From Escherichia coli (GTDB taxonomy: Bacteria > Pseudomonadota > Gammaproteobacteria > Enterobacterales > Enterobacteriaceae): a stretch of DNA of 64,000 nucleotides. Below are positions 36,123-43,452 of the stretch, piece after piece. The DNA lies in assembly GCF_013122565.1 (NCBI RefSeq), contig NZ_CP053258.1; one strand, given 5' to 3'. Every line of letters starts with the position of its first letter. The first letter of the stretch is position 1. The translations under genes were made by a program, and so were the position numbers. A model generated the notes under the pieces. It did not search any database. It worked only from the letters and a program-made list of their open reading frames with translations, and was not told where the DNA came from.

Positions 36123-36175
36123 AAAAATGGAACTTTATAAAGCGCCATTTAGAACTGATGACAAACGCAACATTG

Positions 36176-36275
36176 CCTGATGCGCTACGCTTATCAGGCC
36201 TACATGTTCACTGCAATCTATTGTATTTGAAGGGTTTGTAGGCCGGATAAGGCGTTCACGCCGCATCCGGCATGA
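36176..36275. repeat. REP (repetitive extragenic palindromic) elements
   Basis: gcctgatgcgctacgcttatcaggcctac and gccggataaggcgttcacgccgcatccggca, canonical E. coli REP units. Confidence 0.85.
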
Positions 36276-36350
36276 ACAAAGCCTACGTTGTCTACAATAT
36301 GAAAATGACGCCTTTTACAGCGCCATTTTCAGCTTAAAGTTCAAAAGAGA

Positions 36351-37004
36351 TTATATCCCTTCTTCACTCTCTTTTTTCGCTTCTGCCTTCTCGATTTCAC
36401 GATACCAGCGCGGATGGTGTTTCTTCGCCCAGCGACGGCTCACCTTCCCTTCGATCATCCCTTTAATCGATCCTTTCACCCAGAATGCCATATACATATG
36501 GATCAGGATGGCGTGGATCAGGATGATACCCGCAGCCGCGTGGATCAGCAGGCTGTAGCGAACAACTTGCATCGGGAAGTACTGCGCAAAGTACGGACGC
36601 CAGATAATTACCCCGGTCACCAGCAGCACAAAAATCATACTCATGATTGACCAGAACATCATCTTTTGCCCGGCGTTGTACTTACCAACATCCGCCACTT
36701 TATGCTCATTGCCTTTCAATACTTCGACAATGTTCAACAGCCACGGAATATCTTTCTTATCCGGGATGTTGTGATGCACAAAACGCACAAACATAAACAT
36801 CAGCGCGACGAAAATCGCAATGCCGAAGAACGGGTGCAAAATGCGTCCCATCTGCGGCGTACCGAAGGTTTGCGTCAGCCATTGCAGCGTCGGGAAGAAG
36901 AACGAAATCCCGGACAGCGCCACCAGGAAGAAGCAAATCACCACGGTCCAGTGACAGGCGCGATCAATAAATTTGGTGCGCACAATCATTTTCGACTTAC
37001 TCAT
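36351..37004 (-). CDS. fdnI: Formate dehydrogenase-N gamma subunit (cytochrome b556), 217 aa
   Basis: Start at internal Met ([19 protein letters not shown]...); four transmembrane helices with His ligands; start overlaps the fdnH 3' end by 8 nt. Confidence 0.93.
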
Positions 37005-37881
37005 GATGATCCTCCTCGTCATCGTCCACTTCCTTATTCGGGCCAATACCGATGTAGTGGAAAATCAACCCGGCAAAAGTGGCAATAAAGCCAGCCGCTG
37101 CCAGCGGTTTCAACGCGCCTTTCCACAGGCTTACCGAGGTGTCGATCTTCGGATCTTTCGGCAGACCGTGATACAGCTCCGGCTGATCGGCGTGATGCAG
37201 CACGTACATAACGTGCGTACCACCGACCCCTTCCGGGTTGTAGACGCCAGCATGTTCGTAACCACGCGCTTTCAGTTTCGCCACGCGCTGTTCCGCCAGC
37301 TCCAGCATCTCCTTCTTGGTGCCGAAGTGGATAGCCCCGGTCGGACAGGTTTTCACACAAGCCGGTTCCTGGCCGACGCTGACGCGATCGACGCAGAGCG
37401 TGCATTTATATACCCGGTTATCCTCTTTGTTGAGGCGCGGAATATTAAACGGACACCCGGCAATGCAGTAACCACAGCCGATGCAGTTTTCCGACTGGAA
37501 ATCGACAATCCCGTTAGCGTACTGAATGATTGCACCAGCAGATGGGCACGCCTTCAGGCAGCCGGGATCTTCACAGTGCATACAGCCGTCTTTACGGATC
37601 AGCCACTCCAGCTTGCCGTTCTGTTCGGTTTCGCTAAAGCGCATCACCGTCCAGGACTTGGCGCTCAGATCGGCGGGGTTATCGTAAACCCCGACGCAGT
37701 GCCCCACTTCATCACGGATGTCGTTCCACTCCGAACACGCCACCTGACAGGCTTTACAACCGATACAGGTGGAAACGTCGATAAGCTTCGCGACTTCTGC
37801 TTTGTAATCACGCACCTGAGAAGGCGGCGTGATGGAGTTAGTTGCGGACCTTTTGATAATGTCCTGCGTTTCCATAGCCAT
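36997..37881 (-). CDS. fdnH: Formate dehydrogenase-N beta subunit (4x[4Fe-4S]), 294 aa
   Basis: Four ferredoxin-type Cys clusters ([27 protein letters not shown]...C); C-terminal membrane anchor. Confidence 0.95.
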
Positions 37882-37893
37882 CTGTTCGCCCCC

Positions 37894-40800
37894 TTACGCC
37901 TTCTCGATGTTGACTAAGAACGCTTTATATTCCGGCGTTTGCGAGTTTGCATCACCGACATTCGGCGTCAGAGTGTTAGCGATATAACCTTTACGCGCGA
38001 CACCCTCAAAGCCCCAGTGGATCGGAATACCCACCGTTTCAACCTGCTGACCATTTACATTCAGCGGTTTCAGACGGCGCGTTACCACCGCCACCGCGCG
38101 GATAAAGCCACGCTTGCTTGAGACAGTGACACGATCGCCATTATTAATGCCTTTCGCCGCCGCCAGCGTTTCGCTGATTTCCACAAACTGTTCCGGCTGA
38201 GCAATTGCGTTGAGCAACGCGTGCTTGGTCCAGGTGTGGAAGTGCTCGGTCAGACGATAGGTCGTACCCACATACGGGAACTGCTCTTTTTTACCCATCC
38301 GCAGCGCGTCTTGTTCATACAGACGAACGACCGGGTTAGACACCACGTTCGGATGCAGCGGGTTAGTGCCCAGCGGCGTTTCAATCGGCTCGTAGTGTTC
38401 CGGGAACGGACCTTCCGCCATTTTGTTGATGGCAAACAGGCGTCCCATCCCTTCCGGCTGCATGATAAACGGCCCGGTTGGCGTACCCGGTGCGGCATTG
38501 CCGAAGTCCGGAATATCGTTACCCGTCCACTTGCTGCCGTTCCACTGGATCAGCATCCGTTTCGGATCCCACGGTTTACCGTTGATATCCGCCGAAGCAC
38601 GGTTGTAGAGTACGCGACGGTTGAGCGGCCACGCCCAGGCCCATCCCAGCGTATTCCCCAGACCGGACGGGTCGGAGTTATCGCGGTTAGCCATCTGGTT
38701 GCCCTGCTCTGTCCAGCTACCGGTGTAGATCCAGCAAGAAGATGCGGTTGTACCGTCATCACGCAGATGCGCAAAGCTACTCAGCAACTGACCTTTCTTC
38801 GCAATCAGCACGCCATTTGCGTCATAGAGATCTTCCAGCGCATAGCCGTTGTTCTCTTTTGCCACTTCGTCAGATTGCGGTTCGTGCGGCTGCTTGTAGT
38901 TCCAGCTCATCTTCATCAGCGGTTCTACGCCTTTACCACCTTCGGCCTGGTACAGCTCGCGCAGATGATGGTAGATACCCGCCAGAATTTCGCCGTCGTT
39001 ACGCGCTTCGCCCGGCGCGTCCTGACCTTTCCAGTGCCACTGCAACCAGCGACCGGAGTTAGCGATAGAACCATCTTCTTCGGCAAAGCAGGTCGAAGGC
39101 AGACGGAATACTTCAGTCTGAATAGACGCCGGATCGACATCGTTCGACTCGCCGTGGTTCTGCCAGAAGGTAGAGGTTTCAGTCACCAGCGGATCGATAA
39201 CCACCATGTACTTCAGCTTGCTCAGGCAGCTCACCACTTTGTTTTTGTCCGGGAAGGACGCAACCGGGTTAAAGCCCTGGCAGAAATAACCGGTGACTTT
39301 GCCTTCGTCCATCATGTTGAAATACTTGATGACGTCGTAGGTCTGGTCCCACTTCGGCAGCCAGTCATAGCCCCAGTTGTTCTCTTTCTGCGCGGCATCG
39401 CCATAGAAAGATTTCATCAGGCTAACGAAGAACTTCGGATAGTTGCTCCAGTAGTTCACCTGATCAGCCAGCGTCGCTTTCGGCGTGTTCGCTTCCAGAT
39501 ACGACTGCAAATCAACCTGTTTTTCTGACGGCAGCGTCAGATAACCTGGCAGGCTGGTAGAGAGCAGGCCTAAGTCAGTCAGGCCCTGAATGTTGGAGTG
39601 ACCACGCAATGCGTTCACGCCGCCACCGGCCATACCCATGTTACCGAGCAGCAACTGGATCATCGCCATAGTACGGATGTTCTGCGCACCCACGGTGTGC
39701 TGCGTCCAGCCCAGCGCGTACAGGAAGGTGGTTGTGCGATCCGGTGCGCTGGTGGAGGCCAGCACTTCACACACTTTCAGGAAGTCGGCTTTTGGCGTAC
39801 CGCAGATGTTTTCAACGACGTCCGGCGTGTAGCGGGAAACGTGCGCTTTCAGCAGGTTCCACACACAGCGCGGATGAGTCAGTGTTTCATCGCGTTTCGC
39901 ATAGCCGTTTTCATCGAACTGATAGTTCCAGGACGATTTATCGTATTGCCGTTTTTCAGCGTCGTAGCCGCTGAACAGACCGTCTTCGAAAGCAAAATCA
40001 TCACGCACCAGCAGGCTGGCGTTGGTGTAATGCTTAACATATTCGGCGTTGATTTTGTTGTTTTCGATCAGGTAGCGCAAAACGCCAGACAGGAACGTAA
40101 TGTCCGTACCGGAACGAATAGGTGCGTAAATATCCGCCACAGAAGCGGTACGCGTAAAACGGGGATCGACAACGATCAGGGTTGCATCGTTGTTGTTTTT
40201 CGCTTCCATCGCCCAGCGGAAACCGACGGGATGCGCTTCCGCAGCGTTACCGCCCATTACCATTACGACGTTAGCGTTTTTGATATCCACCCAGTGGTTG
40301 GTCATCGCACCGCGACCAAATGTTGGAGCAAGACTTGCTACCGTTGGTCCGTGTCAGACGCGCGCCTGGTTGTCTACCGCCAGCATCCCGAGGGAGCGGG
40401 CAAATTTCTGGGTCAGCATCCCGGTTTCGTTGCTGGCACCGGAGGCACACAGCATACCGGTAGAAAGCCAACGGTTTACCGTTACGCCCTGCTCGTTCTT
40501 TTCAATAAAGTTAGCGTCACGGTCAGCTTTCATCAGCTTCGCAATACGGGTGAATGCTTCTTCCCAGCTAATGCGCTGCCATTTGTCAGAACCTGGCGCA
40601 CGATATTCCGGGTAGCGCAGACGGTTTTCGCTGTTGACGTAATCCAGCAAACCGGCCCCTTTCGGACACAGCGCACCACGGCTTACCGGATGATCCGGGT
40701 CACCTTCAATGTGATAAATCGCTTCTCTGGCGTTTTTCGCGCCATCACCCAGGCTATACATCAATAGCCCGCAACCTACGGAACAGTATGTGCAGGTGTT

Positions 40801-40941
40801 ACGGATCTCTTTAGCGCGTAATAATTTGTAGTTTCGCGCCTGAGCCAGTGCTTGCTTCGGGGCAAAGCCCAATGCCGCTACTGTTGTTCCAGCCATACCG
40901 CCCGCGCAGATTTTAAAAAATTGTCTGCGACTGACGTCCAT
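37894..40941 (-). CDS. fdnG: Formate dehydrogenase-N alpha subunit, selenoprotein; in-frame UGA (Sec) at 40354-40356, about 1015 aa
   Basis: Two adjacent same-frame minus-strand ORFs (40354..40941 and 37894..40305) separated only by one TGA; Tat signal RRQFFK at the N-terminus; molybdopterin enzyme motifs. Confidence 0.93.
40311..40353 (-). ncRNA. Candidate SECIS stem-loop immediately 3' of the fdnG UGA (mRNA element)
   Basis: mRNA after UGA: CACGGACCAACGGUAGCAAGUCUUGCUCCAACAUUUGGUC, with GACCAA...UUGGUC and GCAAG...CUUGC complementary arms. Confidence 0.6.
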
Positions 40942-42313: not shown

Positions 42314-43414
42314 ATGAAATTAAAAATAGTTGCGGTGGTTGTAACTGGTTTGTTAGCTGCGAACGTAGCACACGCTGCCGAAGTCTATAACAAGGATGGT
42401 AATAAACTCGACCTTTATGGCAAGGTTACCGCTCTACGTTATTTTACTGATGATAAGCGTGACGATGGTGATAAAACTTATGCCCGTCTCGGCTTTAAAG
42501 GAGAAACGCAAATCAATGATCAAATAGTTGGTTTTGGTCACTGGGAATATGATTTTAAAGGCTATAACGATGAAGCCAACGGCTCGCGCGGCAACAAGAC
42601 CCGTCTGGCCTATGCAGGTTTAAAAATTAGTGATTTTGGCTCTCTGGACTATGGTCGTAACTACGGTGTCGGCTATGACATTGGTTCATGGACCGATATG
42701 TTGCCAGAATTTGGTGGCGATACCTGGAGTCAGAAAGATGTCTTCATGACATACCGTACCACCGGTGTAGCAACCTATCGCAACTACGATTTCTTTGGCT
42801 TAATTGAAGGGCTGAACTTTGCCGCGCAATATCAAGGCAAAAATGAACGTACTGACAACAGTCATCTTTATGGTGCTGACTACACGCGCGCCAACGGTGA
42901 CGGTTTCGGTATCTCCTCAACTTATGTTTATGATGGCTTTGGTATCGGTGCGGTATATACCAAATCTGATCGGACAAATGCGCAGGAAAGAGCCGCTGCT
43001 AATCCTCTCAATGCCTCCGGTAAGAATGCAGAACTGTGGGCTACAGGTATAAAATATGGTGCCAACAACATCTACTTTGCAGCTAATTACGCTGAAACAT
43101 TAAACATGACCACCTATGGCGATGGTTATATCTCGAACAAAGCACAAAGTTTTGAAGTGGTGGCGCAATATCAATTCGACTTCGGCTTGCGCCCATCACT
43201 CGCTTACCTGAAATCGAAAGGCAGAGATCTGGGCCGCTACGGCGACCAGGACATGATTGAGTATATCGACGTTGGTGCGACGTATTTCTTCAACAAAAAT
43301 ATGTCGACCTATGTTGATTATAAAATCAACCTGATTGATGAAAGCGATTTTACCCGTGCCGTAGATATTCGCACCGATAACATCGTCGCTACGGGCATTA
43401 CCTATCAGTTCTAA
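42314..43414 (+). CDS. Intact OmpC/OmpD-family general porin, 366 aa (yddL position)
   Basis: Signal peptide ...[20 protein letters not shown]; porin hallmarks (PEFGGDT, C-terminal ...TYQF); adjacent to yddG as Salmonella ompD is. Confidence 0.88.
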
Positions 43415-43427
43415 CATCCTCTCCTGA

Positions 43428-43452
43428 CCAGCCCTTCTCTGGGCTGGTTTTT
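43428..43452 (+). terminator. Rho-independent terminator after the porin gene
   Basis: ccagccc / ttctct / gggctgg followed by ttttt. Confidence 0.8.

Follow-up and report, generated by a model that had tools for sequence, protein, structure and literature searches.

The experimentally dissected prototype of the selenocysteine insertion signals of E. coli is the SECIS of fdhF, the gene of formate dehydrogenase-H (Rfam SECIS_2, RF01988). As the work of Liu et al. 1998 is summarised in PMC8659212, the upper stem-loop of a minimal E. coli SECIS starts 11 nt after the UGA, from nt 15 onward (the U of the UGA being nt 1). The bases contacted by SelB are a bulged U17 and the G23-U24 of the apical loop (PMC8659212). 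More generally, bacterial SECIS elements (bSECIS) are described as having an apical loop of 3-9 nt with a G in the first two loop positions, an upper stem of 4-16 bp, a distance of 16-37 nt from the UGA to the loop and a minimum free energy (MFE) of -7.5 kcal/mol or lower (PMC13188914). That source cites Berg et al. for the demonstration, in 1991, that UGA-196 of fdnG, which belongs to formate dehydrogenase-N, encodes selenocysteine (PMC13188914). UGA-196 of fdnG is thus a known selenocysteine codon, and the hairpin that follows it a known recoding signal. The structure of E. coli FdnG has been solved (PDB entry 1KQF).

Two further groups of genes are relevant here. E. coli fdoG (formate dehydrogenase-O), a paralogue at another locus, likewise has a UGA at codon 196; its protein is 76.9% identical to that of fdnG and its DNA 74.9% identical overall. 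Periplasmic FdhA of Desulfovibrio and related formate dehydrogenases (8cm4, 6sdr) are full-length homologues (E about 1e-288), and the Desulfovibrio-type protein ('formate dehydrogenase, alpha subunit, selenocysteine-containing') has selenocysteine at the aligned position, in the motif ARI-U-HSPTV. Yet the mRNA of this type forms a different hairpin after the UGA (e.g. GCGGCUCUGGCAGAG), which does not fit the pairing of the SECIS_3 family: of the 7 upper pairs, a mean of 4.55 are formed, and CU is a frequent loop dinucleotide.

We analysed a 64-kb stretch of E. coli DNA (hereafter the window), in which fdnG appears in the list of open reading frames as two pieces, one of 195 aa at 40354..40941 (-), ending on a TGA, and one of 803 aa at 37894..40305 (-). 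An earlier note on this DNA had read both as parts of one frame split by a single TGA. Translation of 40941-37894 (-) bore this out, as it gave 1,015 sense codons in one frame, with codon 196 as the sole internal stop and a terminal TAA. Around the stop, the minus strand reads ...CGC GTC TGA CAC GGA..., with the T at 40356, the G at 40355 and the A at 40354. No stop interrupts the 16 codons that lead from the TGA to the first ATG of the 803-aa ORF, and this ATG is the internal Met213 of fdnG. Since there is a single frame with one internal TGA, there is no frame change between the ORFs; such a change, which the note had named as evidence against its reading, was looked for and is absent.

The assignment of the gene as fdnG also held. 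The product matches NCBIfam TIGR01553 with 1620.5 bits (cut-off 814.2) over residues 2-1014, a match that spans the UGA, differs from 1KQF chain A at 4 of 1,015 residues, and is followed by fdnH and fdnI. Aligned to PDB 1kqf_A it matches over residues 1-1015, the UGA standing opposite the non-standard residue 196, and the conserved Cys/Sec motif that had been noticed around the TGA (ARV-U-HGPTVA) lines up with Cys in the small number of homologues that are of Cys type. The predicted protein begins MDVSRRQFFK..., with the twin-arginine motif (SRRQFFK) of a putative signal peptide, and the C-x2-C-x3-C near its N-terminus (CTYCSVGC) would, together with C92, serve a [4Fe-4S] centre; these residues are the same in 1kqf_A. 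The equivalog models for the alpha, beta and gamma subunits of FDH-N all exceed their cut-offs at fdnGHI. In contrast, fdnI scores 268.4 bits with the FDH-O gamma model, under its cut-off of 341, so that the gamma-subunit models separate the two operons and identify this one as fdn rather than fdo. The locus is collinear with yddG-fdnGHI-yddM-adhP of E. coli genomes. Coordinates of the features are collected in Table 1.

Table 1. Features of the fdnGHI locus and of the recoding element, in window coordinates. Nucleotides (nt) are numbered from the U of the UGA.
Feature	Position	Strand	Details and basis
fdnI, cytochrome b gamma subunit	36351..37004	(-)	NF007558 (FDH-N gamma) 486.9 bits, cut-off 339
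fdnH, iron-sulfur beta subunit	36997..37881	(-)	TIGR01582 482 bits, cut-off 334.7; RefSeq of the collinear region agrees
fdnG CDS, formate dehydrogenase-N catalytic alpha subunit	37894..40941	(-)	1,015 codons + TAA; Sec = codon 196
Synonymous constraint zone, identical to K-12 fdoG	40289..40359	(-)	71 nt, longest identical run
Full match to SECIS_3 (RF01989)	40301..40359	(-)	covariance model, 59 nt, model positions 1-59 of 59
Lower stem, 3' arm	40311..40319	(-)	nt 38-46; Rfam consensus structure and pair counts
Upper stem-loop GGUAGCAAGUCUUGCUCC, putative SelB-binding mini-hairpin	40325..40342	(-)	nt 15-32; 18 nt
Lower stem, 5' arm	40344..40353	(-)	nt 4-13; Rfam consensus structure
UGA codon 196, selenocysteine codon	40354..40356	(-)	direct sequence read and homologue alignment

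In comparison with fdnG of E. coli K-12, the codon number, the operon and the flanking genes are the same, and no difference occurs in the 60 nt that start with the UGA. Across the gene there are 34 scattered nucleotide differences, none of them in the element, which lead to S131T, L342F, E366A and S666A, i.e. to 4 differing residues out of 1,015.

With the SECIS_3 model, the RNA that follows the UGA scored 84.3 bits, above the gathering score of 63; the E-value was 3.1e-20 for the local search and 1.4e-18 when the whole window was searched. The family may derive from enterobacterial fdnG/fdoG sequences, in which case the high score would recognise a known element rather than test it independently. 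No other Rfam family and no tRNA gene was found in a scan of the 64 kb, the SECIS_3 match being the only Rfam hit. The SECIS_2 model was also considered; with 28.8 bits it stayed below its gathering score of 70, several of the pairs were non-canonical, and we therefore assign the element to the fdnG/fdoG type, not to the fdhF type.

The upper stem-loop consists of 2 bp, the bulged U17 (40340), 5 bp and an apical loop G23 U24 C25 (40334-40332), 7 bp in total. The spacer of nt 4-14 is 11 nt long, so that the upper hairpin starts 11 nt past the UGA, as in the minimal E. coli SECIS, and U17, G23 and U24 lie at exactly the positions published for the contacts with SelB, with U17 left unpaired by Rfam and ViennaRNA alike. 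The element also falls within the general bSECIS ranges, with a GUC loop (3 nt, G then U), an upper stem of 7 bp, 19 nt from the UGA to the loop and an MFE (ViennaRNA) of -14.6 kcal/mol when 57 nt are folded and of -12.7 kcal/mol when the fold is confined to nt 4-46. In the Rfam consensus, pairing ends at 40311, the left coordinate that the earlier note had given. These findings, together with the conservation described below, substantiate the SECIS-like hairpin that it had placed just 3' of the UGA, and a bSECIS search, which it had recommended, returned the SECIS_3 match above the gathering score. Judged by these sequence features, the RNA 3' of the fdnG UGA is a bona fide bacterial SECIS.

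The fdhF element has G15, G16, the bulged U17, G23, U24 and C25 at the same distances from the UGA as fdnG, as well as the 11-nt spacer and a hairpin within the open reading frame (PMC8659212). The two elements share their first 8 nt (UGACACGG) but differ in the sequence of the lower stem. The fdhF hairpin is 17 nt long, with an upper stem of 4 bp and a GGUC tetraloop, whereas that of fdnG is 18 nt long, with 5 bp and a GUC triloop (or, with the closing A-U pair open, an AGUCU loop). The selenocysteine codon is number 140 in fdhF and 196 in fdnG.

The lower stem is less sharply defined than the upper one, which is the same in the Rfam, ViennaRNA and RNAalifold structures. When the Rfam consensus is applied to this E. 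coli sequence, two of the lower-stem pairs, an A-C and an A-G, are non-canonical, and the free energy of the structure comes to only -7.2 kcal/mol. In the ViennaRNA and RNAalifold structures, G43 and G44 are the partners of C13 and C14, a register shifted by one base, whereas Rfam bulges C14. We give the lower stem in the Rfam register, the comparative data not clearly favouring either. In the published E. coli model, the region of the 5' arm of the lower stem is the 11-nt spacer, which is unwound by the ribosome.

To follow codon 196 and the hairpin outside E. coli, we used 116 homologues belonging to many phyla, which had been retrieved with a search pattern lying 3' of the hairpin. Codon 196 was TGA in 113 of them and a Cys codon (TGT or TGC) in the other 3. 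The bulge position was U in all 113 TGA sequences, and the loop was GU in 65 of the 66 sequences of the HG/HA class. The three Cys-codon homologues kept 7-12 of the 16 pairs, and none had GU at the two loop positions. Within E. coli, the element was found in 5,425 of 5,426 complete genomes, and 5,367 of 5,433 records had the 81-nt element at 99% identity or more. A natural variant, CAC to CAU, converts a C-G pair to U-G, and the pair is therefore kept.

Pair counts were limited to the 41 distinct FdnG-type sequences among the 113 TGA homologues, because the hairpin of the 'HS' class (Desulfobacterota, Chloroflexi and others) has a different fold. In this set the upper helix was paired in 99.3% of cases and the lower helix in 86.4%; overall pairing under the structure was 92.1%, against 27-50% when the partners were slid. 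Two upper-stem pairs at synonymous third codon positions showed compensatory changes, namely 21-33 (GC 30, AU 8, GU 3) and 24-30 (AU 31, CG 10), counts which, the sequences being related, overstate the number of independent events. No mismatched combination occurred at either pair in any sequence, and the observed covariation score was reached in 0 of 500 shuffles. At both pairs the compensatory change is from AT to GC, and GC pressure thus contributes to it. In terms of codons, the rare CUU and GCA occurred together in 31 of the 41 sequences, while the remaining 10 had CUG with GCC, the two sets never being mixed. The loop dinucleotide G23-U24 (columns 26-27) was invariant, although U24 occupies the third position of its codon (AGU or GGU).

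Synonymous sites were also constrained among closer relatives. Among 21 enterobacterial fdnG/fdoG genes, same-codon conservation was 0.985 for codons 197-212, compared with a gene mean of 0.557; this stretch ranked 3rd of 707 windows of 16 codons, the two higher ones being its overlapping neighbours. All 16 codons after the UGA are identical in fdnG and fdoG, while elsewhere the two genes share only 58% of their synonymous codons. The identical run between fdoG and fdnG of the window starts 3 nt before the UGA, and the next longest run of identity is 36 nt.

Folding energy was uninformative by comparison. Compared with dinucleotide shuffles (RNAfold), the hairpin had z = -0.22 (57 nt) and -0.26 (101 nt), which is not exceptional, and 73-79 of 200 shuffles folded as well or better. 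Folding of the RNA after the UGA had been proposed as a check: a foldable hairpin is indeed present, but its stability is no better than that of shuffled sequence. Because a shuffled sequence of like composition folds about equally, we rejected folding energy as a SECIS discriminator, and the absence of a foldable hairpin, which had been put forward as a refuting observation, is a weak test for the same reason. Synonymous-site conservation and covariation can validate a SECIS; hairpin stability cannot. As far as can be judged from sequence comparison, the case for the fdnG SECIS rests on conservation, not on folding energy.

We considered the possibility that fdnG is a pseudogene, in which the TGA would be a nonsense mutation truncating the protein at 195 residues and the 803-aa ORF a decaying remnant. 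This would explain why a naive ORF list gives two pieces and why some pipelines have deposited both as separate proteins. Yet a TGA at the same codon in nearly all homologues across many phyla, and an element present in all but one of the complete E. coli genomes, are not what a nonsense mutation would leave. The 819 codons downstream of the TGA are fully open, with only 3 residues differing from K-12, the sequence of the FdnG structure has a non-standard residue at position 196, and RefSeq carries no pseudogene flag. On reading frame and conservation we therefore rejected the pseudogene, which is extremely unlikely. The appearance of two ORFs in the list, and nothing else, would also fit a programmed frameshift joining them, or two separate polypeptides that assemble into one enzyme. 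Against both stand the common frame, the open intervening codons, the internal position of Met213 and the chain of the crystal structure, which is continuous over residues 1-1015. A frameshift is refuted by the reading frame, and the probability of either arrangement is practically negligible.

A different objection is that the UGA is recoded but that the hairpin arises by accident, from a GC-rich stretch that codes for a highly conserved peptide, read-through depending on something other than a SECIS. The peptide, HGPTVASLAPTFGRG, is indeed highly conserved, which constrains codon positions one and two without any selection on the RNA, and a folding energy no better than that of shuffled sequence speaks for this proposal too. 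If the peptide alone were under selection, however, synonymous third positions should be free to vary. Instead, they are constrained both between the paralogues and across enterobacterial genera, the compensatory pairs lie at third positions, with the CUU/GCA and CUG/GCC sets switching together, and the loop U24, itself a third position, is, like G23, invariant in the FdnG-type sequences. Furthermore, pairing is lost in the Cys-type homologues. An accidental hairpin is accordingly very unlikely, and UGA-196 of fdnG is almost certainly translated as selenocysteine under the direction of a bacterial SECIS located 3' of the UGA within the coding sequence.

We infer the function of this SECIS from its sequence identity with the characterised E. 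coli element; SelB binding, selenocysteine insertion and molybdenum ligation in this strain would likewise follow the established E. coli system. By analogy with that system, the apical mini-hairpin (nt 15-32, with the bulged U17 and the loop G23-U24) would bind the C-terminal domain of SelB, the specialised elongation factor expected to carry Sec-tRNA(Sec) and GTP. SelB would thereby be tethered 11 nt downstream of the UGA, so that the selenocysteine tRNA could be delivered to the A site when the UGA arrives, a delivery that presumably outcompetes release factor 2. The ribosome would then melt the hairpin and read it as codons 197-211, and the selenocysteine at codon 196 would bind molybdenum in formate dehydrogenase-N. 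The genes required in trans (selA, selB, selC and selD) lie outside the 64-kb window, and the competence of the strain for selenocysteine insertion is therefore assumed. These genes are not expected at the fdnGHI locus.

The observation on fdnG is confirmed, already known and ordinary. It brings nothing new to biology, as the product is solved (1KQF) and the hairpin belongs to a curated Rfam family; its practical value lies in annotation quality. The earlier note had expected an annotation pipeline to call a truncated gene or a pseudogene here. RefSeq annotates the homologous stretch as one full-length fdnG CDS of 3,048 nt without a pseudogene flag, so that the claim fails for the RefSeq pipeline, but it stands for other pipelines, which deposited both fragments. 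The exact 195-aa and 803-aa sequences exist as separate protein entries on hundreds to at least 1,000 contigs, and in deposited records the 195-aa fragment is named 'sulfate ABC transporter substrate-binding protein'. Since the fragments are public as separate entries, one of them misnamed, a scan for TGA plus SECIS correctly rescues the full-length selenoprotein. The fdnG case is also a useful positive control for SECIS validation.

Finally, one feature alone goes somewhat beyond the textbook account, namely how far the synonymous constraint reaches. Like the perfect identity between fdnG and fdoG, it continues beyond the hairpin, ending about 20 nt after the final base pair (near 40289, codons 212-216), and on the other side it takes in the 3 nt ahead of the UGA. 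Such an extension could conceivably stem from an additional helix around the UGA (CGUC/GAUG, seen when 101 nt are folded), from the footprint of a SelB-ribosome complex, or from local gene conversion between fdnG and fdoG, though we regard such explanations as improbable. Any of these causes, if true, would only slightly refine a system that is already known.

Direct reading of the minus strand of fdnG (37894..40941), which encodes the alpha subunit of formate dehydrogenase-N, gives ...GCG CGC GTC TGA CAC GGA CCA... around codon 196. The earlier note had proposed that a single in-frame TGA splits this gene into a 195-aa and an 803-aa ORF, and its coordinates were right: translation of 40941-37894 in one frame yielded 1,015 sense codons, a single internal stop at codon 196 and a TAA at the end, so that the two ORFs share a frame. 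The first ATG of the 803-aa ORF is the internal Met213 of fdnG. The 16 codons that separate it from the TGA are all open, and no change of frame was found between the two ORFs.

Coordinates of the recoding site and its hairpin in fdnG (nt, numbering with the U of the UGA as 1)
Feature	Position	Strand	Details
TGA, codon 196	40356-40354	-	sequence read
195-aa ORF	40354..40941	-	ends at TGA codon 196
803-aa ORF	37894..40305	-	ORF list
SECIS_3 match	40359-40301	-	84.3 bits vs gathering score 63, E = 1.4e-18
Spacer and lower-stem 5' arm	nt 4-14	-	
Mini-hairpin GGUAGCAAGUCUUGCUCC	nt 15-32, 40342-40325	-	2 bp, bulged U17, 5 bp, G23-U24-C25 loop
Lower-stem 3' arm	nt 38-46, 40319-40311	-	

The conceptual product is matched across residues 1-1015 by PDB 1KQF chain A ('formate dehydrogenase, nitrate-inducible, major subunit'). 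In this alignment, a check suggested in the earlier note, the UGA lies opposite the non-standard residue 196. The product differs from K-12 FdnG by four residues (S131T, L342F, E366A, S666A) and matches the NCBIfam model TIGR01553 (formate dehydrogenase-N subunit alpha) over residues 2-1014 with 1620.5 bits (cut-off 814.2). The next gene, fdnH, matches TIGR01582 (482 bits) and is followed by fdnI, which matches NF007558 (486.9 bits; cut-off 339) and on which the FDH-O gamma model stayed under its cut-off. The window is collinear with the E. coli yddG-fdnGHI-yddM-adhP-maeA region, and the 3.3-kb region was found in 5,425 of 5,426 complete E. coli genomes, with 95-99.3% identity.

A search with bacterial SECIS (bSECIS) models bore out the proposed element: in the Rfam scan of all 64 kb, exactly one match reached the gathering threshold, to the fdnG/fdoG-type model SECIS_3 (RF01989). 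The left end proposed earlier for the element, 40311, coincides exactly with the final paired base of the consensus hairpin. In the minimal E. coli SECIS, the upper stem-loop lies 11 nt from the UGA and carries a bulged U17 as well as G23 and U24 in the apical loop, U17 and G23 being contacted by SelB (PMC8659212, summarising Liu et al. 1998). The fdnG hairpin shows the same distance, bulge and loop nucleotides. It also conforms, with a spacing of 19 nt and an MFE of -12.7 to -14.6 kcal/mol, to the general bSECIS model (loop of 3-9 nt, upper stem of 4-16 bp, G in the first two loop positions, spacing of 16-37 nt, MFE <= -7.5 kcal/mol; PMC13188914).

Starting at the UGA, at least 60 nt of the element are the same as in K-12 fdnG and fdoG. 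The fdhF prototype is a close structural analogue with U17, G23 and U24 at the same positions, but its upper stem has 4 bp instead of 5 and the lower stems differ; the fdhF-type model, SECIS_2, scored only 28.8 bits (gathering score 70). The three E. coli FDH SECIS elements are described as the best characterised bacterial examples, and the fdnG UGA has been recognized as a Sec codon since Berg et al. 1991 (PMC13188914); both the selenocysteine UGA and the SECIS of fdnG are already known.

Homologues were retrieved with the peptide pattern FGRGAMTNHW, all synonymous codons being permitted and one genome being kept per species. Since its site is downstream of the stem, this pattern imposes no selection on the hairpin. 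The UGA was confirmed to occupy a conserved Cys/Sec site: among 116 usable matches, from Proteobacteria, Desulfobacterota, Chloroflexi, Bacillota and others, the homologous codon was TGA in 113 and TGT or TGC in 3. The latter (L035, L040 and L083, from a Dehalococcoidia MAG, Shewanella xiamenensis and an uncultured proteobacterium) retained no more than 7-12 of the 16 SECIS_3 pairs, and GU was found at the two loop positions in none of them. The bulge position was U in all 113 TGA homologues, and the loop dinucleotide was GU in 65 of 66 HG/HA-class sequences, U24 being a synonymous third position. Of note, about 47 'HS'-class Sec FdhA homologues (L007, L010, L077 and others; motif U-H-S-x-T-V), from Desulfobacterota, Chloroflexi, Bacillota and others, have TGA at the same codon and a different hairpin, e.g. 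GCGGCUCUGGCAGAG, which is incompatible with SECIS_3 pairing; their loop positions are often CU instead of GU.

Pairs were counted on the Rfam structure in 41 distinct FdnG-type sequences (H-G/A-P-T-V-A...). Paired cells amounted to 92.1% (99.3% in the upper helix), as compared with 27-50% when partners were slid by 1-3 columns, and columns 26-27 (G23, U24) were invariant. Pair 21-33 was G-C in 30 sequences, A-U in 8 and G-U in 3, and pair 24-30 was A-U in 31 and C-G in 10, with no broken cell at either pair; the observed covariation score was matched by none of 500 shuffles. The four varying columns are the third codon positions of Val201, Ala202, Leu204 and Ala205, and the protein therefore leaves these two pairs free. 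GC pressure contributes to both switches, which are AT to GC in direction. Yet, the G-G or C-C combinations expected from GC pressure alone were absent from both pairs in the 41 sequences.

Synonymous sites pointed in the same direction. The window's fdnG and K-12 fdoG share 76.9% protein and 74.9% DNA identity and use the same codon at 58% of identical degenerate residues, whereas the 16 codons 3' of the UGA are all identical between them. The longest perfect run between the two genes is 71 nt (gene positions 583-653; 40359-40289, minus strand), the runner-up being 36 nt. Among 21 enterobacterial fdnG/fdoG genes (Citrobacter, Enterobacter, Yersinia, Photorhabdus, Providencia and others; 74-97% protein identity), the same-codon fraction was 0.985 for codons 197-212 (gene mean 0.557), a segment ranking 3rd of 707 behind two overlapping neighbours. 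The 81-nt element is >=99% identical in 5,367 of 5,433 E. coli records. In a variant from E. coli O68:H12 strain 97.3, His197 CAC is replaced by CAU, turning a lower-stem C-G pair into U-G. In the same record, the second codon before the UGA is changed from CGC to CGU, the element occurs only once, where two copies are usual, and a CDS of 3,051 nt, the length of fdoG, is labelled fdnG.

Both synonymous constraint and paralogue identity start 3 nt upstream of the UGA and reach about 20 nt past the last paired SECIS base (codons 212-216). The 101-nt fold predicts an extra short CGUC/GAUG helix around the UGA, but the protein sequence dictates the flanking codons (Val/Ile195, Met213). The extended 71-nt constraint might reflect such an extended structure or a SelB/ribosome footprint; codon bias or gene conversion would explain it just as plausibly.

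We considered the possibility that the hairpin was accidental. The SECIS-like fold that the earlier note had predicted 3' of the UGA is present, but its stability is unexceptional (z = -0.22 for 57 nt and -0.26 for 101 nt) and 73-79 of 200 shuffles folded at least as well. As shuffled sequence folds equally well, a foldable hairpin is by itself no evidence for a SECIS. An accidental origin is nevertheless excluded by third positions that are both conserved and covarying; judged from sequence, the case for the hairpin beyond chance is comparative, not thermodynamic. Nor is the TGA a nonsense mutation in a pseudogene, a reading excluded by its conservation across phyla, the intact frame downstream and the solved structure of FdnG. 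Joining of the two ORFs by a frameshift, or their synthesis as two polypeptides, is ruled out by the reading frame.

These analyses established which gene this is, that its UGA falls on the catalytic Sec/Cys site, and that a hairpin with the geometry published for SelB recognition is conserved and covaries. On the basis of what is known of Sec insertion (PMC13188914, PMC8659212), we infer that SelB, with GTP and Sec-tRNA(Sec), would bind the apical hairpin, and that the approaching ribosome would unwind the lower helix. With the UGA in the A site, SelB would deliver Sec-tRNA(Sec) in competition with RF2; the hairpin would then be read as codons 197-211 and refold behind the ribosome, and Sec196 would serve as the Mo ligand of FDH-N. 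The 64-kb window contains none of selA, selB, selC and selD, no tRNA genes and no other Rfam match; because these sel genes lie outside it, competence of the strain for Sec insertion is assumed.

The warning that annotation pipelines would miscall fdnG was only partly upheld. RefSeq (PGAP) presents the gene in DH5alpha, MG1655 and strain C11 as one 3,048-nt CDS that bears a protein accession and lacks any pseudogene flag. Yet, an exact-sequence look-up found both fragments recorded as separate proteins: the 803-aa piece stands alone on at least 1,000 contigs and the 195-aa piece (40357-40941, minus strand) on 468, the latter with an unrelated label, 'sulfate ABC transporter substrate-binding protein [Escherichia coli]' (e.g. 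EFN8087279.1). The warning is therefore justified where simple ORF callers are used, but not for NCBI's current pipeline.

Elsewhere in the window, 57302-61866 is non-collinear with strain C11, whose sequence at this place carries ISEc1, an Rhs fragment and symE; NCBIfam gave no match for a 250-aa ORF (58095-58847, minus strand), and a 205-aa GST-like ORF (61144-61761, minus strand) matched GstA weakly, below cut-off. At 42314-46159 (plus strand), an intact 366-aa OmpC-family porin (NF007841, 494.7 bits) adjoins yddG; at this place, K-12 derivatives and strain C11 have only yddL, a truncated porin pseudogene. After the intact porin come two ORFs with leucine-rich repeats (421 and 417 aa), against one in those strains, and 42597-45097 is largely non-collinear with strain C11. 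Finally, about 145 bp between yddM and fdnI (36150-36295), absent from E. coli strain C11, consist of REP/BIME-type palindromic units (gcctgatgcgctacgcttatcaggcctaca ... gtaggccggataaggcgttcacgccgcatccggca).
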